Positions 7,659-48,982 of a stretch of 64,000 nucleotides of DNA are shown here, piece after piece. Each line of letters starts with the position of its first letter. Within the stretch, counting starts at the first letter, position 1. Source of the DNA: Candidatus Poribacteria bacterium (GTDB taxonomy: Bacteria; Poribacteria; WGA-4E; WGA-3G); assembly GCA_003635255.1 (NCBI GenBank), contig PYJC01000068.1, positions 8,258-72,257 of the forward strand, written 5' to 3'. Under the pieces are notes generated by a model. The model was not told where the DNA came from and did no database searches. It saw only the letters and a program-made list of their open reading frames with translations. The position numbers and the translations under genes were made by a program.

Positions 7659-7733
7659 CGGGGCGTAGCGCAGCCCGGCTAGCGCGTCTGCTTTGGGAGC
7701 AGAAGGTCGGAGGTTCAAATCCTCTCGCCCCGA
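7659..7733 (+). tRNA. tRNA-Pro(TGG)
   Basis: CGGGGCG/CGCCCCG acceptor; TCTGC-TTTGGGA-GCAGA anticodon arm. Confidence 0.95.
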
Positions 7734-7754
7734 TCCAAAAAATTTCTAACACAA

Positions 7755-7828
<74 letters not shown>

Positions 7829-7866
7829 CTTTTTATTTATCGCGCACGAAGACAAAGTCAAAATCT

Positions 7867-7939
7867 GGTGGATGTAGCTCAGGGGCAGAGCGCTTGACTG
7901 TGGATCAAGAGGGCGTGGGTTCAAATCCCATCATCCACC
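7867..7939 (+). tRNA. tRNA-His(GTG)
   Basis: G-1 plus GTGGATG/CATCCAC acceptor, C discriminator; CTTGA-CTGTGGA-TCAAG anticodon arm. Confidence 0.95.
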
Positions 7940-7946
7940 CTCATGA

Positions 7947-8019
7947 GCGTCCGTAGTTCAATGGATAGAGCAATAGTCTTCGGAACTATAAGTTGGGGGT
8001 TCGAATCCCTCCGGACGCG
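7947..8019 (+). tRNA. tRNA-Arg(TCG)
   Basis: GCGTCCG/CGGACGC acceptor; ATAGT-CTTCGGA-ACTAT anticodon arm. Confidence 0.93.
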
Positions 8020-8117
8020 AATATCTTTGGAGTATCAGGTGCGCGCCTTGCGCACACAAAAGCAATCAGCGAGTGGGTGCTTACAAAGCGCGTCTACGAT
8101 TCAGGGCAGCGAGCAAC

Positions 8118-8190
8118 GCGCCGTTAGCTCAATTGGCAGAGCATCTGACTCTTAATCAGGCGGTTGAAGGTTCGATTCCTTCACGGCGCA
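8118..8190 (+). tRNA. tRNA-Lys(CTT)
   Basis: GCGCCGT/ACGGCGC acceptor; CTGA-CTCTTAA-TCAG anticodon arm. Confidence 0.95.
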
Positions 8191-8214
8191 TCTGTAATAG
8201 GATACACGGAATTT

Positions 8215-8299
8215 GGGCGGGTGCTGGAATTGGTAGACAGGATAGACTTAGGATCTATTGGGGTTACACCTCGTGAGGGTTCAAGTCCCTCCTCGCCCA
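8215..8299 (+). tRNA. tRNA-Leu(TAG)
   Basis: ATAGA-CTTAGGA-TCTAT anticodon arm; long variable arm; sits upstream of tig as commonly seen. Confidence 0.95.
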
Positions 8300-29558: not shown

Positions 29559-31793
29559 CTATCTTCCATTGTGTTGGGTAATGAGTTTTATAACTTCGGT
29601 TCTGCCCGATTTGACCTTTGCTTTGTCGACCTCAATTTGTAGCATACCGATTATGACCTCGGTAAACGCCCAGTCCAACTTTGCCCCATCTATCGCTGCG
29701 CTACCGGTATTATTTCGGAGTGTCGTATCTGCGCCTTTCTCAAGGAGCAGTTCTACTGTTTCAGCACGTCCCAGGAATGCCGCCGAGTGCAGAGCCGTTC
29801 CACCGTCCCGGCTTTTCGCATTGACATCTGCGCCGTGTTCAAGGAGGAGTGCTACAATTTCCGTATGCCCCATCAGTGCAGCAATGGATAGCATTGTGCT
29901 TCCAGATTGCGGGTCCTGCGCATTAGGGTCTGCTCCATCTGTGAGTCCTTGTTTAACCGCCGCGAGATCTCCGATAAAAACTGCGCCCGGTAGATCATTG
30001 GCGGAGGCTATGTCCTTGCTATCAAATTCTTTGACCCCAAAGAGTTTCGCAATTTCGTTCCTACCGCTTTGCATGACAGGAATATTTTCCCTCTCGACCT
30101 CTACGCCCATCAAACCGCCAATAAAGCCGGTAGTTCTCCAATCGAGATGCAAGGCATCCGCTGGTGTTCCGCCATCGTCGTTGCGTACCTGTAGGTTTGC
30201 CCCGTTCTCGACAAGAAGTTTCGCGACCTCTGCTCTACCGAAAACTACGGCACCGTGCAAGGGTGTGCTGCCGTTATCGTCTTTTATATTAACATTAGCA
30301 CCGTTTTCGATAAGGAGGCGAGTCGCTTCGGTTTGTCCGTGAGACGCGCTCCATGCCAAAGGGGATATGTTCATACTCTCGTCTGGTGCGTTGACATCAG
30401 CACCTTCAGCGATGTAGCGTTTCATCGCTCGGAGATCACCGGTGCGTGCGGCATGCCACAGCCCCTCCTCGGGCAATTGAATGAATTTTTTCATGTCAAA
30501 GCCTTCAGGTCCCATAACGAACGGCGGATTCGGTTTCCTACGCCAGACAGGCATCCCATCGCCGATTTCTTGTAGTATGTCGTTTTTACGGGTACGGATG
30601 AAATCACGAACGTTCGCGAGTTGGTCCTCAAAGGTCTGTTTTTTGCCTCTTCCCCCCCATTCTTCCTTTCGAAATTCACGTTGTTCGGGTAAGAGGTAAG
30701 GCTGAATCATTACAGCGACCCTGTCCAGCTCAGCAAGCAGTTCTTCCTCATTCCAGTGGCTTTTAAGGAGCTCCATCATTGTTTTTGCGTACCGCTCGCG
30801 TCCTGCCTCCAGTTGATACAATCTGTATGCAATCAACCCTTGCGTCTTGACGGAGATCGGTCCTTGTGTATTTCTCCGGAAGTCCATCTTGAAATTTGTA
30901 AATAGCGAATCCGCGCCCCACGGTAAAAAGTGAAACTTGTCTGTATCAGGATTAAGGTAAATGAAATAATTGTTACCATTTCCAGAATAGCCATCCCAGA
31001 AACCGAGTAGACTTTCTATTGCCCAGAATCGGTAAAAGCGATCTAAATCAACGAACTCACCGATGGCTGCTTCCGTTACTTGGTTATCCGCAAGCACATC
31101 AATTAACGCGATGATTTTTTCTCTGCCAAGGGCATCGTCGCCTCTTTTATGTTCAAAACTGTTTTCCCATTCCTCGTTAAAATCGACGACAGTGCCTTCA
31201 TAGAGTGGGCCGTCGTCATTTCCGAACGCACGTTTCAAAAGTGGTTTGCGAAAGGTTTCCACATGAGAATATATCCCTAAACTTTTGCCGTTCACCGTTA
31301 CCTTCGCATACGCGCATCGCGGCGCGGGAGAACCGATCGCGTTAAACAACGCATACCCCACAAATTGACTCACTTGGCTTGTATCCTGTTTGTTATTATT
31401 AAGCGTCAGGTTTGTCAACCCTTCAATTCCACTCTTTTTGTCAACGTGATTTAATCTAATTTTAAGAGAGGGGCGTGTATGACTTTGCGAACCGATGAAC
31501 CCTTTTTTACGGAGCCCAACTTTCGGGAAAACCACACCGTCAATACTCACACTTGCATCGACATAGGTATACGGATGATCCAGCGGCCCGAACTGCCGCT
31601 TCTCGTTGAGTGCACTCACAAAATCCCGTGACTGATACCGGATTGTGTCCCAATCCTTCTCCGAAACAGTAATCTGCACATCTATCACCCGATCCGTTGG
31701 GAAAATATCGTCTAATGTCAGTTCTTTTGCGCTGCTTTGAGCAGCAATCCCGAAACAGAGGATTGTCGCTAAGCATAGTATCCATTTTATCAT
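29559..31793 (-). CDS. Secreted CotH-like kinase fused to ankyrin repeats
   Basis: Signal peptide; CotH motifs VGLRKKG, RPSLKI, LNN..QD, APRC.YA.V.VNG..LG.Y..VE, WDGY.GN.NNY, LPWGAD; C-terminal ankyrin repeats (TPLH.A...G..EV..LL.E.GA.VN). Confidence 0.85.
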   Translation of the reverse strand: MIKWILCLATILCFGIAAQSSAKELTLDDIFPTDRVIDVQITVSEKDWDTIRYQSRDFVSALNEKRQFGPLDHPYTYVDASVSIDGVVFPKVGLRKKGFIGSQSHTRPSLKIRLNHVDKKSGIEGLTNLTLNNNKQDTSQVSQFVGYALFNAIGSPAPRCAYAKVTVNGKSLGIYSHVETFRKPLLKRAFGNDDGPLYEGTVVDFNEEWENSFEHKRGDDALGREKIIALIDVLADNQVTEAAIGEFVDLDRFYRFWAIESLLGFWDGYSGNGNNYFIYLNPDTDKFHFLPWGADSLFTNFKMDFRRNTQGPISVKTQGLIAYRLYQLEAGRERYAKTMMELLKSHWNEEELLAELDRVAVMIQPYLLPEQREFRKEEWGGRGKKQTFEDQLANVRDFIRTRKNDILQEIGDGMPVWRRKPNPPFVMGPEGFDMKKFIQLPEEGLWHAARTGDLRAMKRYIAEGADVNAPDESMNISPLAWSASHGQTEATRLLIENGANVNIKDDNGSTPLHGAVVFGRAEVAKLLVENGANLQVRNDDGGTPADALHLDWRTTGFIGGLMGVEVERENIPVMQSGRNEIAKLFGVKEFDSKDIASANDLPGAVFIGDLAAVKQGLTDGADPNAQDPQSGSTMLSIAALMGHTEIVALLLEHGADVNAKSRDGGTALHSAAFLGRAETVELLLEKGADTTLRNNTGSAAIDGAKLDWAFTEVIIGMLQIEVDKAKVKSGRTEVIKLITQHNGR

Positions 31794-33710: not shown

Positions 33711-34916
33711 TTACTTTGCGTGTATTATCGCCGATGCATGTGTGCTATTAATTTCAAATTTCGGTTCTGGATGCCCCGCTTCTGCCAGCAACCTTCTCGC
33801 TATTCGTATGCCCACACCAAAACGTTGCACAAGTTCAAAAGTCCGCATCGCTTCCGCCAAATTAGGGTTTCGATAGTCAACAAACCCGGGCTTCCCAAAA
33901 TTTTCAGCCGTTATACTACCAAATACACCGCCCGGACTTAAAACCTCAATCCGGTCGTTGTACCAATACACATGAACCGGGGCATTCGTGCCTTCGTAGG
34001 TCCGGTGCATAATAGCATTTCGGGTGATCTGTTGCACCGCCTCTATTGGATAAAGTGCTGTCCGTTTTTCAATGGGACCGGATATAATATCAACTGCGAT
34101 GCGGTTATGTGCTATCAGTTTATCGTCTAAACGGCGGATCTGGTCAGAAATCGCCCCGCGTACTGCAAGACTGTCAACAATATCATCCGTGAGTTCGTTC
34201 CCATCAACTCTGAGGAATTGCACATAAGCCCCGGGTAGGAAATCCTGTGGGTTCTTTCCAAGCGTGAGGATTCCGAGTACCGTTGCTGTCGGATCATCTG
34301 CAGCGGCGATCATCTTTGTGGCTGCGAGCTGTTCATTCAAACTCCGATCATTGGCATCCAATATTTCCGCAGAAAACGCTTTGGGTAGGTATTCATAGCT
34401 AAACAAAGCCAAGTTAAGGTCGGAAATCTGACTTGACAAGACAGGATAGAGGTCAAACGGGTGCTCTAAATATCGCCGTTTTTCATTGAGTATCCGCTCA
34501 TCCTGTGCTGCGGCGGTATCTCGACGCGGCCCTGTTCGGATATGAATCGCCCCTCTGCATCTAACCGGAGGTGAATTGGACGGTTCTACTTTGACCACTG
34601 CCACTTCTTTGCCTTGCAGTAAACGCCTTTCCACCGTCAGAGATGGCGGAGGCACAATATTCCCGTCGGTTTTCATATCCGCCAATTGCCGGAGCAATTC
34701 GTCTGTAACCGATAGACCGACAATAGTTTTGTCCCATCTCACTCCGACGAAAACAAATCCAGGTTTTTCATAATTGGGCAAATCGTTGGTAAAGGCGCAA
34801 ATCGCCTCTCTAATTCGTTCCGGAGCATTACCAGACAAAGACTCCTTGAACTCAACCCTGTCAGATTCATCGTCCTCAATAATTTGTAGTAATTCTGCAT
34901 CTGTGAAATACCGCAT
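33711..34916 (-). CDS. Schlafen/AlbA_2 domain plus HATPase_c_4 (RecG-C-like) protein
   Basis: ESDRVEFKES, ICAFTN....G.VFVGV (AlbA_2); NAIMHRTY, DRIEV.SPG, YRNPNLAEA, VQRFGVGI. Confidence 0.85.
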   Translation of the reverse strand: MRYFTDAELLQIIEDDESDRVEFKESLSGNAPERIREAICAFTNDLPNYEKPGFVFVGVRWDKTIVGLSVTDELLRQLADMKTDGNIVPPPSLTVERRLLQGKEVAVVKVEPSNSPPVRCRGAIHIRTGPRRDTAAAQDERILNEKRRYLEHPFDLYPVLSSQISDLNLALFSYEYLPKAFSAEILDANDRSLNEQLAATKMIAAADDPTATVLGILTLGKNPQDFLPGAYVQFLRVDGNELTDDIVDSLAVRGAISDQIRRLDDKLIAHNRIAVDIISGPIEKRTALYPIEAVQQITRNAIMHRTYEGTNAPVHVYWYNDRIEVLSPGGVFGSITAENFGKPGFVDYRNPNLAEAMRTFELVQRFGVGIRIARRLLAEAGHPEPKFEINSTHASAIIHAK

Positions 34917-35030: not shown

Positions 35031-36731
35031 TCAATACAACACATGCACGCGGTTTTTCCCACGCACCGTCTCATCTGGCATCGTCATTGGCACCTCAACG
35101 ACAACAATTAACGCGCCATCCTCACTGATCGCAAGCGTATCATAAGGCAGCTGCCCTTCCGTTCGATAGGTGTACAGGTATTTTGATAAACCGCTGCCTT
35201 CCGCCATCAGGTCGAATACTGACACGCCATGGAGGCTCTCATTTGGGTCCTGTGTACGCTTAGAAACAGACAACACGGCGTAACGATCCATTGCATCAAT
35301 ACGTAAACCCTGCGGCATATTCTCAAGTTTCCACTGCCAGATTTTTTCTCCACCCCATGAATAAGCAAATAGCGTCATCGCATTCGGATGTGATGCCGAC
35401 GGTCTTTGCGCCCCCTTCCGGAGATGATACGGGATATAGGTGACCCCGGTAACGAAGAGTGCCGCCGCATCTGTTGCACCAATCGTACCAGCAGTCGCGA
35501 CGACAGGAACACCACTCACCTCCAATGGTGTCGTCAAGTTCTCCTGCCATATCGATTCCGACTTGTTCGTATCGAAAATGAACGCACGACCATCGTCCGC
35601 TGTTACGTTTATGAATTTACCGTCGGCTGACATGCTGACCCCCCGCCAAAACGTGACCTGTGGGAAATACTCGCGCAGCGGTTCAATATCCGCTTGCCAC
35701 TTTTCCGCGCCGTCTTCCGCGTTAAGAACAACGAGTTTTCCGTTACCAGCATCATTTCCATCGGTTGCGCTCCCTTGTAGATTATGTCCCGCATCTGCTA
35801 CGAGGGCGAGTGTTTTCCCGTCAGCACCTACATCAAACCAGCGTATTATCTTCCGAGTCGCACCGTCGCGCGGCCATTTCCAGATAACATCTCCGGTTTC
35901 ACTGTTAAACCTATAAAGTTGCGATTTCTTAACCGGCACCTCGTTTTGTTTCCACGAATGCACACCCGCAACCAATAGGTCCCCGTTCGCCAATGTTCGC
36001 ATACATGATGGACCAGGGTAACTGACCCACGCAAAGTTGCTGTCGGGATTGCTCGGCGTAGAGGTCTCAATGTCATCGGCGGTGCGATATTTCCAGCGGA
36101 GTGTCGGATTCTCAGATGTGAAATCGTAACAATAGATGAACCCGTCTGCCGCCTGCTCACCGATATAGAGCAAGTTACTATCTGGACTGAACACCATTCT
36201 TCTGACATAGCCTTCCGAAATCCGAGTTTTCCAGAGTGTTTCGCCTGTAAGTGCTTGGAGAACTGCGATGTGTCCGCTATCCGTAGCGATTGCCAATTTA
36301 TGGGTAGATGGTGCCTTTCGATGTCCTAAAGCAATTGCGGTCGGTTTCGCGGGTTGACGGAGGCTTTCCATGAGCGACAAAAGTCCATCTAATTCAACCG
36401 TCCGAATAAGGTATGATGTCGGCTTCAGCGGCGAGGTCGTTGTTACTTCGCTATCGTCTAAGCGAAATTGATAATCCTTGTTCGGTTGCCACGTGAATTG
36501 CAGTAGAATGCGATTGGTATCAAGTCGTTGGACTGCGGGTACTTCGGTTAATTCCTGTGCCGTGCCGTTAAATACCATCGCGACATTGATTTTGTCTGAT
36601 ATACCCTCTTTATGTTCAGTTTCAACGACTACGCCTGTCCGAACCCAAGTGACACGCATATCGGCTGTCGAAATACCAATCGGTAAAATAACAAACAGAC
36701 AGAGAAAAGTAAAAAATTGAATTCGCTTCAT
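35031..36731 (-). CDS. Secreted PQQ-like/WD40 beta-propeller protein
   Basis: Signal peptide; repeated TGE.LWK, FSPD, ETG.VIWKW, DG.EKWQ, GEKIWQW blades. Confidence 0.75.
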   Translation of the reverse strand: MKRIQFFTFLCLFVILPIGISTADMRVTWVRTGVVVETEHKEGISDKINVAMVFNGTAQELTEVPAVQRLDTNRILLQFTWQPNKDYQFRLDDSEVTTTSPLKPTSYLIRTVELDGLLSLMESLRQPAKPTAIALGHRKAPSTHKLAIATDSGHIAVLQALTGETLWKTRISEGYVRRMVFSPDSNLLYIGEQAADGFIYCYDFTSENPTLRWKYRTADDIETSTPSNPDSNFAWVSYPGPSCMRTLANGDLLVAGVHSWKQNEVPVKKSQLYRFNSETGDVIWKWPRDGATRKIIRWFDVGADGKTLALVADAGHNLQGSATDGNDAGNGKLVVLNAEDGAEKWQADIEPLREYFPQVTFWRGVSMSADGKFINVTADDGRAFIFDTNKSESIWQENLTTPLEVSGVPVVATAGTIGATDAAALFVTGVTYIPYHLRKGAQRPSASHPNAMTLFAYSWGGEKIWQWKLENMPQGLRIDAMDRYAVLSVSKRTQDPNESLHGVSVFDLMAEGSGLSKYLYTYRTEGQLPYDTLAISEDGALIVVVEVPMTMPDETVRGKNRVHVLY

Positions 36732-36765
36732 TATCGTGTTCCTTATGTTGTTTTCATCATTGATC

Positions 36766-37086
36766 GGTGTAGTTAGGAAATAACACCATAAGTGTCAATT
36801 TAAGAGAAAATAACAGCCTCGGCCCCAGGCCCGGTAGGTTCGGTTTCCCAACCGAACCGGATACTACGCGAAAACCTTGAAGGCTTCAAAAACCTCTTCA
36901 GTCCCGTAGGGTTTATTTGCTTGGGTGTTTCTTCAGTATTTGTGTAGAAATGTGTATCGACCAAAGACCCAAGCCCCAGAGGGGGTTTTTGATAGGGTGT
37001 TTCTGCGGCATTTGTAGAGATGCTACTACGAAATAACGAGAAATATCCCTAAATTGACACCTATGGTGTAGTTAGGAAATAACACC
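36766..37086. mobile_element. MITE-like element with about 21-bp TIRs bracketed by a 22-bp direct repeat
   Basis: GGTGTAGTTAGGAAATAACACC at 36766-36787 and 37065-37086; TIR acaccataagtgtcaatttaa / ctaaattgacacctatggtgt. Confidence 0.7.
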
Positions 37087-37098
37087 TATCGGTCTGAA

Positions 37099-39030
37099 CT
37101 AATCCGCCACACGCCATAAACCCCGTCCTAATCTCGCACCGAGAAGTACACCGATAAATGTATAGACAAACCCTTCTATCAGAACTCGAAGCACAATATA
37201 CCAATCGGCATAGAAAAGTCGATAGAACAGCATAGAAAGTTGGAAATCGACATAGACAGCGAGCGCGTCGCAGATCCCCAGCACAACAGCCCACGCCAAT
37301 ATACTCCGTCCCCGCACAAACAGGAATCCTGTTTCCAACAGCAAAACACTCGTGCCGGTATAGACAATCGCCATCGGTGTGAAAAGTCCGAACGTAACGC
37401 CGCTAAGCAGTAGACGCACCGCAGAGACAAGCAGGATTACGCCGCTCCCTTTATTGTGCCGTTTCGCGTCGGTGCGATCGGAACTCGTCGGATCCCCGTT
37501 AATATAAATTAGCAAGGCAGTCAGCAAGGCGTAATAGAGCGTCTCATTAATCAAACCACTCACCAGCACAGAGATCGGACCGAGGAGCGCACTGATTAAG
37601 TTGAGGAACAGCGTTGACGGGACCATCACCGCTACAAAAACCGTCGTACCGAACAGCGAGATCACAATAATCTGTTTTGTTGTAAAGCCCGAAAAAATTC
37701 GCTCGTGAAATCGTCCAACGATCGCAAAGCCGATACTACTGCTAATAATCGCCAATAGACTAATGAGCAGCGCTTGTTGGTTTGGAACGACCAAGTGTAG
37801 TGGACGTTGTTCGCGCAGAATCGTCGCGTCACTGCCCCAAACTTTCACCGCAATATCACGCATATACGCCCCAGGGATCGCCTGTTCTGGCTCACCTTGC
37901 CTCATATATACTGGATGAAAATAGATAGGCAGTGGGATCTCCGTAACCACTCCCGCCGGTAGGCTCGCAAACGCTATGCTCCGATTTGTACCGCCGTTCG
38001 TTGTTTCTGGAGGCGCGAGAAACGCAACAGTTGCACCACTCTTCATATCTGTGTTGACCGATGAGACGACCACATGGATCGTCTCTTCACCCGTATTCCG
38101 TAGCCGTATGGCCTGATAGGTCATCGGTTCAAACGCATTCGTCGGTGGTGTTCCGAGCCAACTGAATAATGGACGCGCATGGTAGATAGTATCTTCTCGC
38201 TGTCTCGGGTCCACTATCCCTGTTGCATCTGTAGGCATCTCAATCGATGCTATGGAGAGGTGCTCGGCGATCTCTGGAACAGTTGCTATCCGCAGCTGCA
38301 CCCTTGCCTGCTGCTCCCACATCTGCCCTGTATCTGTTCTGAAACGAGCAATACCCGAAATTTCTTGATTATCCGTTTGGCTCACCTCGGATGTCTTCAA
38401 AACTAACTCCCGATACCAAACTTCCGAGGCAACCTTAAATCTGTCCGTCGTCGAGAGACAGGTCTCCCCGCCGACTATTTCACTTTTCCAGTCTGCAGGT
38501 GATCTAACAATAGTTAACGTCCGGGGCAAGCAGAGTTTGAGATCAAAAGTTGTTGGGACATTCCCGTTTGTAACGAGAACTGTGGCTGTCATTTCGCTTT
38601 CGTGCAAAACAAGTGCCTTTTGATTGCTACCCGACACATTTTCCGGATCCGACTGCATCGCAGCACCGTACGGAATAGCAATGTCCAAGTTTCCTTGTGT
38701 GTATACGCGCGGCGCGGTTACCCTTTGCTTATCAACGCTTCCTGTCGACAAGATCGCTTCAAATCTATAGGTCTCTCCCGCATCCCATTCAAAATAGAGT
38801 GGCTCTGTCTGCCGAGGTGATGTAGGGAAGTTAAGTTGTGCGACCATTACATCGTCCGCATTAAAAGCGTTCAGACGCTGGACCGGTGCTTCTGCACTGA
38901 ACTGCACCTTGGCACCCAACGAAAAGAACGTCACTTTCCATGAAAGTGGTTCCTCTTTGGAGGTTGAAGCACAACTGATTAGGAAAATGAGCAGTGACAG
39001 GCACCAGACTGCTTTTTTTATCGCTGTCAT
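37099..39030 (-). CDS. Lipoprotein-signal protein with large extracytoplasmic region and C-terminal multi-TM domain (ECF S-component-like)
   Basis: Lipobox LLIFLISC; about 400 aa soluble region; then about 6-7 hydrophobic helices from F.TKQIIVISLFG to GVLLGARLGRGL. Confidence 0.65.
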   Translation of the reverse strand: MTAIKKAVWCLSLLIFLISCASTSKEEPLSWKVTFFSLGAKVQFSAEAPVQRLNAFNADDVMVAQLNFPTSPRQTEPLYFEWDAGETYRFEAILSTGSVDKQRVTAPRVYTQGNLDIAIPYGAAMQSDPENVSGSNQKALVLHESEMTATVLVTNGNVPTTFDLKLCLPRTLTIVRSPADWKSEIVGGETCLSTTDRFKVASEVWYRELVLKTSEVSQTDNQEISGIARFRTDTGQMWEQQARVQLRIATVPEIAEHLSIASIEMPTDATGIVDPRQREDTIYHARPLFSWLGTPPTNAFEPMTYQAIRLRNTGEETIHVVVSSVNTDMKSGATVAFLAPPETTNGGTNRSIAFASLPAGVVTEIPLPIYFHPVYMRQGEPEQAIPGAYMRDIAVKVWGSDATILREQRPLHLVVPNQQALLISLLAIISSSIGFAIVGRFHERIFSGFTTKQIIVISLFGTTVFVAVMVPSTLFLNLISALLGPISVLVSGLINETLYYALLTALLIYINGDPTSSDRTDAKRHNKGSGVILLVSAVRLLLSGVTFGLFTPMAIVYTGTSVLLLETGFLFVRGRSILAWAVVLGICDALAVYVDFQLSMLFYRLFYADWYIVLRVLIEGFVYTFIGVLLGARLGRGLWRVAD

Positions 39031-39043
39031 TATTTTCCCCAGG

Positions 39044-39395
39044 CCGGTAGGTGCGGTTTGATGAAGTTTAATTATTTAAATCGGTAATTCTGATCGCTTT
39101 TCTGTCTGAATCGCGGAAGGCACAGAGGACACCGAGGACGCGGAACTAAGAGATTGTTTTCTTTCCGCCCACATCTCTTAGGAAGTGCCATGCAGAATTT
39201 AGCGTCGCCTTTTCCGCGTTCTCCGCGTTCTCCGCGCACTCCGCGATTCAGACGACAAGATAACGCACCTCACACAAGAAAACATAAACAAGATATCTAT
39301 GATTCGCAAATTACCGATTTATTTAATCTTCATCAACCGCACCGGACTGCCCCAAAGAATTACCGAATTAATTTTTTAATCTTCATCAAACCGCG
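39044..39395. mobile_element. Nested repeat composite: REP-like palindrome interrupted by ATGAAG...CTTCAT element containing a 9-mer-repeat hairpin
   Basis: gtaggtgcggtttg|atgaag...cttcat|caaccgcacc; inner gtctgaatcgcgga...tccgcgattcagac with tccgcgttc repeats; second right end at 39358-39386. Confidence 0.65.
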
Positions 39396-39409
39396 CTGCA
39401 GATGCTAAG

Positions 39410-40735
39410 TTAAAGTCCTTGTCCTATCAGCACCAGATCAAGGATATTCACCACTTCGTCACCATTAACATCGGCGATGATACCAGGTCCCTCATCACCC
39501 AAGAACCGAGCTGCAATTACCAAATCTGACGCATTGACAAACCCGTCGTTGTTTAGGTCTTCGCGGCGCGGTATAATCGTTGCGAACTCCAAATTATTGG
39601 CACCGTGACCAACGTGATAGGATCGTAAAAGTGACGCATCTGCCACGTCCATGACGCGAACGTAATTCTGTCCGCTGCCCCCCCAGTCAGGTTGTGTGAT
39701 ATAGAGACTTCCATCTGGCGCAAAGGTCAAGCCGCCACTGACAGATGTATCTGCATCGTTGCTGAAGTTGGCAATCGTGTTATCTTCGTCACGGATCCAG
39801 TCTCGCGCGACGATATCGTAGATAAGCAAGCCGGGGTTTCGCCAACTGCCTTGCATAAACAACTGTTTTTCTGAATTGAGAGCGATGGAACCGGGTGTGA
39901 AATCGAGTTTAACCGTTTCCACTACCTCATCAGTATTCGCATCAATCAGAACGAGATGCCCGAGGACATCGTTGTAATTGCCTGTCGTCTTAACAATAAC
40001 AGTCGATTCACCATCGTTGAGGATTTGACCCGCGTTCGTCGGTACCGGAATAGATTTCAATATGATATCTGTCTCTGTATCAATCACTGTGACACTACTA
40101 TCATAATAACTTACTCTCCCGGCAACGGGATCCCACTCCCATGCGGGGTTCGAGACATAGGCTTTGCCGTTGAGAAGCGTGATACCCGTCGGTTTGTTGA
40201 AAGAACCCGTGAGGACCTTCGTCACATTGCGATTCGGAATGTCAACGACATGCACCTCATGCGCCGCGGCACACGTAACGTATAACTTCTGATCACTGAC
40301 CAAAGCGACCTGCTGTGGGGTTGTACCCGCTTCCATCGGGATTTCGCCAACAAACTCTCGATCTTCCAAGTTAATAATCAAAATATTGTCACCGGAACTC
40401 ATTCCACCCGTGATAGGTAAGTTGAAACTCGTGACATAGGCGAGATGCCCGTGAACAGAGAGACCAATTGCCCGCCGCCGCAATCTCGGAGCAAAGCCGA
40501 TGGAGAGTATCTCGTTGTCAACAGCCTGTCTCTCATTTGGCTCTTCCAGATCAATGAGTGAAACTGAGGCGATGATGCCCAAATCCGGATGCGTCAGCGC
40601 ATTTATGACAACAGCCGTGTTCGCCTCTTCTGTTTGTCCTAAAGCAGGATTAAGGGTGAGAGTGAAAAGGATCGCGCCTATAAACAGGAGCGAATAGCGC
40701 GAGAAATGTCGCCAAGTGAAAAAAAATCTGTTCAT
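39410..40735 (-). CDS. Secreted YncE-like beta-propeller protein with C-terminal dockerin-like domain
   Basis: Signal peptide; blades KLYVT, KAYVSN, VTVIDTETD, TFAPDGSLYIT; tail DLNNDGFVNASDL...DVNGDEVVNILDLV; GGAGG RBS before ATG 40735. Confidence 0.8.
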   Translation of the reverse strand: MNRFFFTWRHFSRYSLLFIGAILFTLTLNPALGQTEEANTAVVINALTHPDLGIIASVSLIDLEEPNERQAVDNEILSIGFAPRLRRRAIGLSVHGHLAYVTSFNLPITGGMSSGDNILIINLEDREFVGEIPMEAGTTPQQVALVSDQKLYVTCAAAHEVHVVDIPNRNVTKVLTGSFNKPTGITLLNGKAYVSNPAWEWDPVAGRVSYYDSSVTVIDTETDIILKSIPVPTNAGQILNDGESTVIVKTTGNYNDVLGHLVLIDANTDEVVETVKLDFTPGSIALNSEKQLFMQGSWRNPGLLIYDIVARDWIRDEDNTIANFSNDADTSVSGGLTFAPDGSLYITQPDWGGSGQNYVRVMDVADASLLRSYHVGHGANNLEFATIIPRREDLNNDGFVNASDLVIAARFLGDEGPGIIADVNGDEVVNILDLVLIGQGL

Positions 40736-40751
40736 TAAAACCTCCGTAATG

Positions 40752-40790
40752 AAACAAAAAACCCCTGCTTTCATTGAAAAGACAGGGGAT
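40752..40790 (-). terminator. Intrinsic terminator (expression platform of cobalamin riboswitch)
   Basis: Minus strand CCCCTG-tc-TTT..AAA-GCAGGGG followed by TTTTTTGTTT, just upstream of the RBS. Confidence 0.75.
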
Positions 40791-40927
40791 GCGGCGACAC
40801 TCTATGTATGCTAAATCCTGCAATTGTGTCCGAAGATATTGTACCTTACACGGGTTCTTCTATACTAACAGGATACTGCTGCGCGCTGTTCCACCGCTTT
40901 CCCGCGAAAGCAGATGCGTGAAACACG

Positions 40928-41095
40928 ATCCAGGCAGGTCTCCTGACTTCCGATCTTGCGTCCCCTGAACCTTCCCATCAGTTGGTTGACAGTGGTTTTT
41001 TCAGCGGATATTTGTGATCGTTCACAGTGGCGGGGCCGTGGCGGATTCTCACCGCACTTCCCTATTCTCCGGCTTTCTCCGGCACCTGAACCGTT
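40928..41095 (-). ncRNA. Cobalamin (AdoCbl) riboswitch
   Basis: Minus strand: CAGGTGCC...AATAGGGAAGTGCGGTGAGAATCCGCCACGGCCCCGCCACTGTGA...CCACTG...TGGGAAG...AAGTCAGGAGACCTGCC, containing the canonical core and B12-box elements. Confidence 0.93.
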
Positions 41096-41119
41096 AATTT
41101 ATTCTATTGTAATGCATAT

Positions 41120-41148
41120 ATTATATCACATTACGACATTTTTTGCAA
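41120..41148 (-). promoter_or_regulatory. Sigma70 promoter for riboswitch-led operon
   Basis: Minus strand TTGCAA-N17-TATAAT about 25 nt upstream of the riboswitch. Confidence 0.75.
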
Positions 41149-46075: not shown

Positions 46076-48982
46076 ATGAAAAACAGTGATGCCCAGTTAA
46101 TCCATCGTGTTCTCAACGGCGATGAAACCGCTTTTTCAGAACTTGTGGAAAAATATCAAAAACAGGTGCACGCACTCGCGTGGCGAAAAATCGGTGATTT
46201 TCACATCGCCGAAGAAATTACACAGGATACATTTTTGAAAGCCTATCAGAAACTCCGAACGCTGAAGAAGCCGCAGCGTTTTGCAAGTTGGCTTTATGTG
46301 ATTGCCACAAACCGCTGCAACACATGGTTGCATAAAAAGCATTTTCGGACGCAGTTATTGAAAAACAAGGGCGGTGCACAACCTAAAAAAGCGTCGTATT
46401 CTGAATATGTCGTTGAAGAAAACGAGCGCATCTCTGTAGAGGCACAACGCGAGGTCGTCAAAAAACTGCTTGCGAAACTTGAGGAGAGCGAACGCACTGT
46501 AATGACGTTACATTACTTCGCAGAGATGTCGTGTACGGAGATCGGCGCGTTCTTAGGCGTATCCGCAAATACGATTAAGAGTCGACTGCGCCGTGCCCAA
46601 CAGCGTTTAAAAAGGGAAGAACCCGTCATAAGAGAGGCTTTAGAGAATTTCCAAATCTCACCGAATCTTACTGAAACCATCATGCGTGAAGTTTCACGTA
46701 TCAAACCGATGCCCCCGTCTTCTGGTAGTAAACCGTTCGTACCGTGGGCAGTTGCAGCTTCCACATTGGCCGTTATGTTGCTCGTACTCGGTTTTGGAAA
46801 CCAACAATACTTCGTGCGCTTTCAGAAACCTTATAGTTTAGATGCGACTTCGGAAATGACAGTTGACATCATTGACGCACCTATCATCGCGAACCTTGAA
46901 TCAAAAATAGATGTGCGGACACAAATAGGAAGGACCAACGCAGTGGGTAAGCGTCATACCCCTAAACAGCAACCTAACGATGCGCCCGCAACAATTGCAG
47001 AGTCACAAACGGAGGAAACCGTGAAAGATTGGACACAATGGGAATTGCCTGAAAAGGCAAAAGCGCGTCTCGGAAAAGGCGGAATCAACGTACTTCAATT
47101 CTCACCGGACGGCACCCAACTTGCCGTAGGCAGTAATATTGCGGTGTGGCTTTACGATGTGGAAACAGGAAAAGAAGGGTCCATGTTCCCCGGTAGGTGC
47201 CAATCCCTCGCATTTTCGCCAGATGGACGATTCCTTGCCCATGGAGGCGATGAGTACAGTGGAAAGGCACTTCAGCTGTGGGAAGTCGCTACCAGACAGA
47301 AAGTGGATCTTCCAGTATTGCAGTTCTCTGCCGCAGTATTGCAGTTCTCTGAGGACGGCAAAACGCTTATCAGTTTGGCAAATCATGGGCACTCAATTAG
47401 ACATTTAGATATTGATACCAAAAAGGGAAATGTGAAGAAGATCAAAGACCAATCTTCACATTTTTCCCCTGCCCCCGATGCACTCACTTACAATAAATTT
47501 GCTGTCGGCAGGAAGGACGGAAGAATTGAGTTGTGGGATACAATAACCGGTGAAAAATTATTCACGCTCAGCGGACATGCGGAACTATCTGCTCATTCTG
47601 AAGAACGCGCCTTCTCCGAGGGATGTGTCTTAGCCTTGGCATTTTCGCCCGATGGAACCCAACTCGCCAGCGGCGGTGGAGACACAACCGTACGATTATG
47701 GAATGCCACCAGCAACGATGAACCGACCATTCTCCACCAGCACCACGAAGGTTGGGTAAATGTGTTAGCATTTTCGCCGGACGGAAAAATGCTTGCAAGC
47801 GGAAGCACCGATAAGACCGTGCTTTTGTCGGATACCACCACAGGTAAACGACTCGCCGCACTCACTGGACATATTAACGGCATTACTGCCCTAACGTTTT
47901 CATCCGACGGTAGTAGGCTTGCAAGTGCAAGTGCAGACGGCACCGTACGATTTTGGGATACCAAGACCGGCAAATCGCTTGCTATGCCTATCAACGGACA
48001 TACACAATGGATAAAGGCGGCTACTTTCTTGAGAGAGAATTCGACGCTTGTTAGCGCGGCATCTAACGGCATAATTACCTTTTGGGATTTAAAAACACCA
48101 CAAAATCCAACGCTTCAGATGGGAGAACATCGGGATTGGTTCAGGAGTTTAGTGTTTTCACCAGATGGCACGAGGCTCGCCAGTATCGGTGTAGAACGTG
48201 CAAACATGATCTTCAAAATAGGGAGTGCCGTTCTTACCTTAACAACACCTGATAACTTGATCCGTTTAACTGACACCCGCACGGGGCATGAGGTAACTTT
48301 GAAAGAGACATCTTCTCCCTCAAATCCAACATTTTCAACTGATGGAAAAATGTTAGCCTTCAGCGGTTCGGATAAGATCCATTTGTGGCATACAGAAACA
48401 GGGCACACACTCGACATTTCCTTCTTTGATCCGAACGATCATCCCGGATCATCTTATCGCCCTGAAATCAGCGCACTGGCATTTTCCCCGGTTAGAAAAG
48501 AACTTGTCAGTTCTACTGAGACAGGAAAAGTTCAAGTATGGGATACGGAAACCGGTGTTGCATTAGCGACCCTTCTTGACGGACAGAATTTGGATGAGTT
48601 CGCAAATACTATTGAGGAACCAATTACAGCATTGACATTCTCGCCAGATGGAACGTTGCTTGCCGTGGGAAGTAATCAACGAATTCGCCTGTTCAGAAGT
48701 GAGAAATATATTGGCATGAAGGAAGAAATACCTCATGGTTCCGAAGTATTGGTATTTTCGCCGGATAATGGCGTGCTTGTGAATGGACGTATAAGTGGCG
48801 ATATCCAGTTATGGGATGTTATAACTGGGAACAAGCTCACCACACTCACCGGACATACAGCTCGCGTGGAGACGTTGAAATTCTCTCCCGATGGGAAAAC
48901 AATTGTCAGTACAGGAGCAGATGGCACAATTCTTTTGTGGGATTGGGAGGAAGTCCTTGAAGGTATAAAGGTAGGAGAATAA
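46076..48982 (+). CDS. ECF sigma-70 factor fused to transmembrane helix and WD40 beta-propellers
   Basis: Sigma region 2 (AF.ELV..YQ...AEEITQDTF..F.SWLY.IA.N), region 4 (EIG.FLGVS.NTIKSRLRRA), hydrophobic segment, many FSPDG..LAS...D.TVRLWD repeats. Confidence 0.9.
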   Translation: MKNSDAQLIHRVLNGDETAFSELVEKYQKQVHALAWRKIGDFHIAEEITQDTFLKAYQKLRTLKKPQRFASWLYVIATNRCNTWLHKKHFRTQLLKNKGGAQPKKASYSEYVVEENERISVEAQREVVKKLLAKLEESERTVMTLHYFAEMSCTEIGAFLGVSANTIKSRLRRAQQRLKREEPVIREALENFQISPNLTETIMREVSRIKPMPPSSGSKPFVPWAVAASTLAVMLLVLGFGNQQYFVRFQKPYSLDATSEMTVDIIDAPIIANLESKIDVRTQIGRTNAVGKRHTPKQQPNDAPATIAESQTEETVKDWTQWELPEKAKARLGKGGINVLQFSPDGTQLAVGSNIAVWLYDVETGKEGSMFPGRCQSLAFSPDGRFLAHGGDEYSGKALQLWEVATRQKVDLPVLQFSAAVLQFSEDGKTLISLANHGHSIRHLDIDTKKGNVKKIKDQSSHFSPAPDALTYNKFAVGRKDGRIELWDTITGEKLFTLSGHAELSAHSEERAFSEGCVLALAFSPDGTQLASGGGDTTVRLWNATSNDEPTILHQHHEGWVNVLAFSPDGKMLASGSTDKTVLLSDTTTGKRLAALTGHINGITALTFSSDGSRLASASADGTVRFWDTKTGKSLAMPINGHTQWIKAATFLRENSTLVSAASNGIITFWDLKTPQNPTLQMGEHRDWFRSLVFSPDGTRLASIGVERANMIFKIGSAVLTLTTPDNLIRLTDTRTGHEVTLKETSSPSNPTFSTDGKMLAFSGSDKIHLWHTETGHTLDISFFDPNDHPGSSYRPEISALAFSPVRKELVSSTETGKVQVWDTETGVALATLLDGQNLDEFANTIEEPITALTFSPDGTLLAVGSNQRIRLFRSEKYIGMKEEIPHGSEVLVFSPDNGVLVNGRISGDIQLWDVITGNKLTTLTGHTARVETLKFSPDGKTIVSTGADGTILLWDWEEVLEGIKVGE

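Follow-up and report, generated by a model that had tools for sequence, protein, structure and literature searches.

A cobalamin-riboswitch-led operon of Candidatus Poribacteria encodes parts of a candidate corrinoid importer, a probable ECF transporter variant with extracytoplasmic capture proteins

Which proteins does a bacterium place under a cobalamin riboswitch, when none of the familiar genes of vitamin B12 (cobalamin) uptake stands beside it? The question is raised by positions 35031-41148 of the window analysed here, a stretch of 64,000 nucleotides (contig PYJC01000068.1, positions 8,258 to 72,257) which is part of a 5.4-Mb Candidatus Poribacteria assembly (GCA_003635255.1; 81.9% complete). 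The riboswitch leads into three co-oriented open reading frames (ORFs) on the minus strand (39410-40774, 37099-39030 and 35031-36731), here called genes 1, 2 and 3. No gene for BtuB, BtuF, BtuCD, a cob enzyme, EcfA or EcfT and none for a TonB-dependent receptor was found among the scanned neighbours in the window, in line with an earlier note on this DNA. That note, made from the sequence without database searches, had proposed a non-canonical module for B12 capture and uptake. The riboswitch, the fold predicted for the membrane domain of gene 2 and the linkage of gene 2 relatives to genes of energy-coupling factor (ECF) transporters support this candidate function. We consider it probable that the three genes encode the substrate-specific part of a B12-repressed corrinoid importer, which would add to the ECF transporters a new variant whose capture parts lie outside the cytoplasm.

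The aptamer (40916..41104, minus strand) matched the cobalamin riboswitch model RF00174 with 113.8 bits (E 9.3e-28; gathering score 31.5 bits) over the full model (positions 1-189), so that the canonical cobalamin riboswitch proposed earlier held in an Infernal-type check. It is the single RF00174 match in its own genome. Between the aptamer and the start of gene 1, an intrinsic terminator (40756..40788, minus strand) forms a candidate expression platform composed of a hairpin (40762-40788) and a subsequent U run. The hairpin, which had also been noticed earlier and which a simple terminator scan missed because its outer loop is long, folds with -17.1 kcal/mol (z -2.44; 5 of 200 shuffles folded equally well). 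The start of gene 1 given by the ORF finder (ATG at 40774) falls within this hairpin, and the ATG at 40735 is preceded by GGAGG; for these reasons 40735 is the more likely start. About 15 nucleotides upstream of the riboswitch lies a sigma-70-like promoter (41120..41148, minus strand; TTGCAA-17-TATAAT with an upstream TG) that agrees with the consensus at 10 of 12 positions. The sigma70 promoter of the earlier note thus stands as a consensus match; its strength as evidence is reduced by the frequency of such sites in the region, which is hardly above that in shuffled sequences (12 versus 9.5 expected). At a high intracellular cobalamin level the riboswitch would let the terminator form and transcription would stop, and at a low level read-through of the terminator would allow all three genes to be transcribed.

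The arrangement is stable within Poribacteria. We examined 80 loci obtained from a scan of one genome per species and screened by nhmmer and tblastn for the riboswitch and genes 1-4, gene 4 being the ORF that follows gene 3. The order riboswitch-gene 1-gene 2-gene 3 was kept in 77 of them, at protein identities down to 52-55%, and the three loci without the full set (L015, L035 and L066) are cut by the end of the contig or of the locus. A distant clade (L105, L108) has the same layout with a riboswitch confirmed by Rfam.

The nature of the system is indicated most clearly by gene 2 (37099..39030, minus strand). The AlphaFold2 (AF2) model of the full-length protein, built from an alignment of 60 diverse homologs, had a predicted local distance difference test score (pLDDT) of 90.9 and comprised a signal peptide with the lipobox LISC, three beta-sandwich domains (residues about 31-118, 136-249 and 258-414) and seven C-terminal helices. 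This is in agreement with the lipobox, the extracytoplasmic region of about 400 amino acids and the six to seven transmembrane helices described in the earlier note. According to the model, the first of the helices (TM0, residues 418-447) brings the chain in from the outside, so that the ectodomain is predicted to be placed outside the membrane and the six-helix core of an ECF S-component (residues 448-643) in its usual orientation.

Sequence comparisons gave little indication of such a fold. Gene 2 had no Pfam, NCBIfam or PDB sequence match and is, by Pfam and NCBIfam, not a member of any described S-component family; within its family, faint Pfam matches to PF09819 ('ABC_cobalt') and to PF09605 occurred in one of 46 members each. 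The profile of the membrane domain found nothing in PDB except a chance match to Vpu (E 0.21), and an ESM Atlas feature search with residues 412-643 gave no usable match. The family itself is not small: among 1.8 billion library proteins it has 346 representatives when grouped at 50% identity, and 335 matched stretches were found among about 185,000 species genomes. The invariant residues of its membrane domain are G, P, G, G, E, R, A, W, Y and L.

Since a Foldseek search with the whole model returned only immunoglobulin-like multidomain proteins (integrins, macroglobulins), the membrane domain was folded alone (residues 412-643, alignment of 46 loci; pLDDT 91.4). In a structure search of this model against 48,161 chains, the first 15 rows were all ECF S-components. 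The best match was YkoE (5EDL; Z 12.2, root-mean-square deviation 3.1, 170 residues aligned), and the others included RibU, ThiT, BioY, PanT, FolT, NikM/CbiM and BtuM (Z 8.0, 153 aligned); CbrT was found at row 17 (Z 5.8). The top Foldseek match of the membrane domain was 5EDL as well (E 0.017, probability 1.0).

The second line of evidence comes from other phyla. A further scan took a remote member of the gene 2 family as its centre and yielded 49 loci from Planctomycetota, Hydrogenedentota, Myxococcota, Fibrobacter, Lentisphaeria, Verrucomicrobiota, Desulfobacterota, Nitrospirota, Deferribacteres, Firmicutes, Actinomycetes and Pseudomonadota, in which the neighbours were assigned by phmmer on all ORFs and the assignments confirmed with Pfam. 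Directly next to the gene 2 homolog, 48 of the 49 loci encode an EcfA-A' ATPase with two fused domains and/or an EcfT of the CbiQ type, Pfam confirming two ABC_tran domains and CbiQ in these neighbours. A gene 3 homolog accompanied the gene 2 homolog in 36 loci, and all three neighbours were present in 27, several of the misses being short contigs. These co-occurrences define a conserved core of four genes that encode the S-component with its ectodomain, the propeller, EcfA-A' and EcfT; the order in L088, a locus from Lentisphaeria, is for example riboswitch, S-component, ABC-ABC, CbiQ, propeller. Ten of the 49 loci have an RF00174 riboswitch upstream, on the same strand and no more than 8 kb away; in L141 it lies downstream. 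The neighbourhoods of homologs, which the earlier note had named as a check, show near-universal ecf linkage and an upstream riboswitch in a minority.

Because S-components fill the list of structural matches so uniformly and because gene 2 relatives outside Poribacteria are linked to EcfA-A'/EcfT genes, we regard the assignment of the modelled C-terminal domain to the ECF S-component fold as firm, and the resemblance noticed earlier is substantiated. The fusion of such a domain to a lipid-anchored ectodomain had been called unusual. Indeed, no S-component with an ectodomain of this kind or with a propeller partner was found described in open-access papers and bioRxiv.

Genes that can be linked to B12 recur in the operons of the other phyla. 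Besides TonB-dependent receptors (L129, L133, L149 and L090) and TonB-ExbBD, these operons contain CbiZ (L090, L109, L127, L138 and L141; L109 is from the cultivable Dethiosulfatarculus sandiegensis), CbiK and CobN/ChlI/ChlD. In the operons of proteobacterial type the TonB-dependent receptor is followed by a conserved protein of about 370 amino acids (L129:4960-6069, L133:4782-5918, also L089, L137, L144, L149, L151 and L157). It has no Pfam or PDB match and, by analogy, could be a receptor lid comparable to BtuG.

Is a corrinoid importer what a member of Poribacteria would need? Gene content was compared in five complete Poribacteria chromosomes (G001-G005), of which G001 belongs to a close relative, its gene 2 being 88% identical to the one studied. 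Each chromosome contains exactly one RF00174 match, located at this operon. CbiC, CbiB/CobD, CobS and CbiM were not found in any of the five. They have 5-7 B12-binding-domain matches each, including one in an open frame of 1227-1250 amino acids that is read from its size as methionine synthase MetH, and all five have a PduO-type adenosyltransferase. Lacking CbiC, CbiB/CobD and CobS and having kept B12 enzymes and the adenosyltransferase, these genomes have the profile of organisms that depend on the import of ready-made cobamides. The own genome of the studied operon has three B12-binding-domain matches and no CobS match.

The motor of the putative importer is probably encoded elsewhere on the chromosome. 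Each of the five complete genomes has a single EcfT and a single EcfA-A' match that stands far above the rest (E about 1e-106 to 1e-111; next best about 1e-29), with 32-39% and 35-46% identity, respectively, to the EcfT and EcfA-A' encoded beside gene 2 homologs. They are distant from the operon and from each other, and no ecfT or ecfA-A' gene was adjacent to the operon in the 80 Poribacteria loci. Since no PF12822, BioY or CbiM S-component was found in the five genomes, the unlinked ECF module probably serves gene 2. The earlier note had allowed for an S-like domain acting either alone or with a shared module; the lone orthologous EcfT and EcfA-A' of the five genomes favour an unlinked module dedicated to gene 2, with the reservation that neither was found in the own genome. 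EcfA-A' is placed about 1.6 kb beyond a B12-binding-domain match in all five complete genomes (L169:99-3009 in G001), and in G001 an ORF with Radical_SAM and DUF4070 domains lies 8 bases upstream of it. The EcfA-A' motor of the transporter may thus be co-expressed with a B12 user.

Gene 3 (35031..36731, minus strand) encodes a secreted protein with an N-terminal beta-sandwich followed by the PQQ/WD40-like propeller recognized earlier (PQQ_2, 36.6 bits; cut-off 27.6). Its possible identity as BamB was rejected, as the scores for TIGR03300 (32.5 bits versus a cut-off of 285.2) and NF008351 (26.1 versus 423) were far too low; the gene is instead associated with ECF genes in the other phyla. Homology between the N-terminal beta-sandwich and the first domain of gene 2 emerged only from profile comparison (hhalign probability 94.8%, E 4.9e-8, 101 columns), BLASTP of the two N-termini being weak (E 0.067). 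About 100 N-terminal residues, comprising the signal and a beta-sandwich with the motif F/W-x-W-x-x-G-x-x-Y ... AP, are common to both proteins.

The gene 2 ectodomain (residues 21-417) was modelled in complex with gene 3 (residues 25-566); the score was 0.87 in three runs, and the best of three controls scored 0.00. Of 80 solved complexes 58 attained this score, as did 2 of 110 mismatched pairs, a yardstick that is roughly valid here, custom alignments having been used. The runs had at least 69% of contacts in common, with a partner pLDDT of at least 83, and all three ectodomains of gene 2 lay along one face of the gene 3 propeller, the predicted interface including residues 57-81 of gene 2 and 515-526 of gene 3. 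The modelling supports gene 3 as a predicted binding partner of the gene 2 ectodomain. Together with gene 2, gene 3 belongs to the conserved core and is no incidental neighbour.

Gene 1 (39410..40735, minus strand, with the revised start) is, in contrast, specific to Poribacteria: homologs were present in 79 of the 80 Poribacteria loci and in none of the 49 loci of other phyla. The secreted YncE-type propeller with a dockerin-like tail, as the protein had been described, was recovered as a Sec signal without a lipobox cysteine, weak propeller matches (YncE, DUF5074, NHL), which place it in the YncE/YVTN type, and a C-terminal type I dockerin (Dockerin_1, PF00404, 31.7 bits; cut-off 22.9; residues 405-450; PDB dockerins E 3.2e-5). 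The likeness to BtuG, proposed earlier from the propeller fold, extends to detectable sequence similarity. A profile of 19 Poribacteria homologs matched BtuG1 in PDB (8PTD, 8PTF, 8BLW) with E about 3e-14 (8PTD 3.3e-14), the alignment covering 256 positions; BtuG2, BtuG3 and 3DSM followed with E about 3-5e-7. BtuG-family entries, identified as such from the literature, made up 12 of the top 13 rows. At its C-terminus the L108 homolog carries a Por_Secre_tail, a sorting signal for type IX secretion, which argues for export of gene 1 to the cell surface.

The dockerin raises the question of a cohesin. Cohesin matches numbered 13-21 per Poribacteria genome, none of them in gene 2, which had no Pfam cohesin match. 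On the level of structure the ectodomains of gene 2 resemble pilins, cohesins and macroglobulin-type beta-sandwiches, and the second one (residues about 111-251) is cohesin-like (2VO8 Z 11.7, 4DH2_C 10.8, 6KGC_A 10.6), pilin and macroglobulin domains matching it about as well. It is conceivable that the gene 1 dockerin (39410-39560 of the window) tethers directly to this domain.

The following route would be consistent with these data. The BtuG-like propeller of gene 1 would be secreted, be anchored to the cell surface through its dockerin and scavenge a corrinoid there. The outer-membrane step would be encoded outside the studied operon, Poribacteria having 12-20 TonB-dependent receptor matches; in other phyla a TonB-dependent receptor belongs to the same operon. 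In the periplasm, the gene 3 propeller would clasp the three beta-sandwiches of gene 2 atop the seven-helix membrane domain, and this assembly would receive the corrinoid. The S-component of gene 2 would then carry it across the inner membrane, driven by the fused EcfA-A' and EcfT encoded elsewhere in the genome, and in the cytoplasm the adenosyltransferase and B12 enzymes would use it. ECF transporters are ABC importers defined in part by the absence of an extracytoplasmic binding protein. We tentatively suggest, as a possibility that falls a little short of an even chance, that the propeller-clasped, lipid-anchored tower of three beta-sandwiches fused to the S-component acts as a periplasmic receiving station for corrinoids delivered by a TonB-dependent receptor or by the BtuG-like scavenger of Poribacteria, and that the system would thereby break this rule.

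Several observations weigh against a corrinoid ECF importer or against individual parts of it. The best Z score of the membrane domain, 12.2, is within the range in which the search tool warns of helical bundles in general, and its extra N-terminal helix, with the N-terminus outside, resembles the metal S-components NikM (Z 10.1) and CbiM (Z 8.5). Outside Poribacteria the riboswitch is upstream in only 10 of the 49 loci. The listed ORFs around riboswitch-less loci were scanned in 21 loci (89 of 127 ORFs); CbiZ and/or CobN/ChlI/ChlD neighbours were found in 7 of these, and 14, mostly from Planctomycetota and Hydrogenedentota, had no B12-related gene. In view of these numbers the substrate of the gene 2 family may not be uniform and may vary across phyla. 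Moreover, CobN/ChlI/ChlD are chelatase-type proteins that also fit the traffic of metals or of other tetrapyrroles. The own genome had no match to EcfT (PF02361) or to an EcfA-A' ortholog, which is uninformative because of its 81.9% completeness. Finally, a strong FecCD-type permease is encoded near TonB-dependent receptors in four of the five complete genomes and may represent another B12 route; the studied system need not be the only one. No account of B12 uptake in Poribacteria was found in open-access papers and bioRxiv.

The identity of gene 1 has to be qualified in the same way. Its DUF5074 score of 23.4 bits is under the cut-off of 27.2 bits for this family, which we take to be that of BtuG. 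Gene 1 is almost as similar to 1L0Q, a YVTN propeller of an archaeal S-layer (E 5.4e-13), as it is to BtuG1. The ligand contacts of BtuG1 include R141, E180, R244 and E249 according to bioRxiv 2024.02.16.580637, and at these positions gene 1 has Q, T, T and N, that is, 0 of 4 kept, as mapped with an inferred offset of 38 at low identity. Because of the closeness of 1L0Q and the residues at the mapped contacts, gene 1 is to be called BtuG-like by its sequence and not a BtuG.

The alternative that survives best retains an ECF importer with the same capture tower and changes the substrate, either to cobalt or another metal or to a non-corrinoid tetrapyrrole (heme or a metal-free precursor), so that the tie of the riboswitch to the B12 economy would be loose. 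It draws on the chelatase-type genes that flank homologs in L086, L087, L109, L120, L138, L141 and L142, on the seven-helix topology with the N-terminus out, as in NikM and CbiM, and on the faint 'ABC_cobalt' match mentioned above. CbiM and NikM bind the metal by a free N-terminus; the N-terminus of the gene 2 membrane domain is not free, being a 400-residue ectodomain, and the protein has no match to the CbiM Pfam family (PF01891). Control of cobalt transporters such as CbiMNQO by cobalamin riboswitches is established (PMC13119186), and ECF systems for heme are reported (PMC7299338; bioRxiv 864751). Nevertheless, the five complete Poribacteria genomes, which lack CbiC, CbiB/CobD, CobS and CbiM, make B12-repressed cobalt uptake pointless, since neither cobalt nor corrin precursors could become B12 there. 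Cobalt uptake was therefore rejected as the leading interpretation. The CbiZ neighbours and the TonB-dependent receptors in other phyla indicate corrinoids as well, and the nearest solved relatives of gene 1 bind B12. A different substrate is thus unlikely, and corrinoid uptake by an ECF importer is preferred.

Slightly less probable still, the gene 2 product of the studied genome could function as a solitary S-component fed by genes 1 and 3, with no ECF module involved. BtuM is a characterised solitary S-component-like B12 transporter and is among the structural matches of gene 2; in addition, the own genome gave neither EcfT nor EcfA-A', and ecf genes were adjacent in none of the 80 Poribacteria loci. 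This is opposed by the incompleteness of that genome and by the single EcfT and single EcfA-A', orthologous to the gene-2-linked ones, which G001 and the four other complete genomes have kept with no other S-component family found there that would need them. The gene 2 family is also encoded with ECF genes in nearly all loci of the other phyla. A B12-regulated module for the envelope, adhesion or host interaction that transports nothing, for example a B12-independent substitute function, is very improbable: the pilin-, cohesin- and macroglobulin-like ectodomains, the abundance of cohesins in Poribacteria and the use of propellers as generic binding scaffolds would suit it, but the S-component fold and the near-universal EcfA-A'/EcfT linkage outside Poribacteria are hard to reconcile with it.

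If the corrinoid ECF importer is accepted as the preferred interpretation, its relation to known systems has to be considered. Like the system proposed here, ECF-CbrT of Lactobacillus delbrueckii (6FNP) is a cobalamin ECF importer composed of a six-helix S-component, EcfT and two EcfA domains, and CbrT is a structural match of the gene 2 membrane domain (Z 5.8). However, no sequence similarity between the two was detected, and CbrT, which comes from a monoderm, consists of the S-component alone (about 20 kDa), whereas gene 2 has an extra helix and a lipobox ectodomain of about 400 residues, and its system has a propeller partner and a fused EcfA-A' and is distributed mostly in diderm phyla. 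BtuM (8OVV) has the S-component fold in common with gene 2 (Z 8.0, 153 aligned), a host in which no ECF genes are adjacent, and Gram-negative hosts. It differs in the absence of detectable sequence similarity, of an ectodomain and of a propeller partner, and relatives of gene 2 are encoded with EcfA-A'/EcfT. The cobalt-ligating cysteine of BtuM has no invariant counterpart in the membrane domain of the gene 2 family.

BtuG, the surface propeller lipoprotein of Bacteroides which caps BtuB (8PTD, 8BLW, 8BMX), is of the same propeller type as gene 1 (E 3.3e-14 to 5e-7), and gene 1 is likewise encoded under a cobalamin riboswitch and likely surface-exposed. In contrast to BtuG, gene 1 has a dockerin (a type IX tail in L108) instead of a lipobox and no adjacent gene for BtuB; its score lies below the DUF5074 cut-off, and the BtuG1 contacts mapped with the inferred offset are not kept. 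It is a candidate corrinoid-binding protein. The group I metal ECF systems CbiMNQO and NikMNQO are similar in riboswitch control, in a seven-helix S-component with the N-terminus out and in the CbiQ-type T component, with structural matches of Z 10.1 (4M5C) and 8.5 (5X3X_M). They differ from the present system, which has no CbiM Pfam match, no CbiN and a large N-terminal ectodomain, and whose hosts are unable to make B12 from cobalt. The system resembles ECF-CbrT or BtuM combined with a BtuG-type scavenger, and it is, as far as sequence comparison goes, a member of none of these groups. The fused ectodomain and the obligate propeller partner make it a clear variant of ECF transporters.

Corrinoid exchange shapes microbial communities, and the Poribacteria, which are sponge symbionts, appear to be B12 scavengers whose only B12-regulated genes encode a system named by no database. 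If our interpretation is true, this system would be a third type of corrinoid importer in the inner membrane of diderms, beside BtuFCD and BtuM, and would prove ECF transporters capable of recruiting proteins for capture outside the cytoplasm. A function would also be provided for an unannotated family found across ten or more groups of phylum rank, mostly diderms (Planctomycetota, Nitrospirota, Desulfobacterota, Myxococcota, Fibrobacterota, Verrucomicrobiota/Lentisphaeria, Hydrogenedentota, Firmicutes, Actinomycetes and others), and a marker of B12 dependence which genome-based predictions now miss.

The gaps between the three genes deserve a separate comment. Both are filled with elements like miniature inverted-repeat transposable elements (MITEs), as had been stated earlier, which are short, non-coding and dispersed in many genomic copies. 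The element between genes 1 and 2 (39053..39394) has inverted arms of 39 nucleotides that are 87% complementary, and 91 matches in its own genome; that between genes 2 and 3 (36762..37090) has arms of 41 nucleotides with 76% complementarity, and 86 matches. As some Poribacteria relatives (e.g. L032) have short repeat-free gaps and almost contiguous genes, the repeats are late insertions into an operon, and it is from this compact arrangement in relatives that we infer co-transcription across the gaps. Gene 2 and gene 3 have in common the motif ACCTACCGG(G)CCTGGGG, placed shortly before the start codon (36815-36835 and 39040-39060 of the window, minus strand) and at the inner edge of each repeat element. 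In L105 (9409-10569) genes 2 and 3 are separated by an inserted TnpB/Cas12f-like gene (OrfB_IS605 and a Cas12f1-like TNB domain), which is another sign that the intergenic regions of the operon attract mobile elements.

Gene 4 (33711-34916, minus strand) encodes a protein with Schlafen AlbA_2 and HATPase_c_4 domains and is the next gene after gene 3 in 47 of the 80 Poribacteria loci, in some of them as a partial gene. It was rejected as a member of the module, since it shows neither envelope nor B12 features and the other phyla lack a counterpart. In a riboswitch-controlled operon of Desulfobulbaceae, a fused NifH-like and nitrogenase-component-1-like protein of 752 amino acids is encoded directly after ecfT (L132:10048-12303). 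Elsewhere in the window, six tRNA genes are clustered at 7659-8299 (plus strand). Eukaryote-like repeat proteins, which are typical of sponge symbionts, are represented by a CotH kinase fused to ankyrin repeats (29559-31793, minus strand) and by a WD40 protein of 968 amino acids (46076-48982, plus strand).

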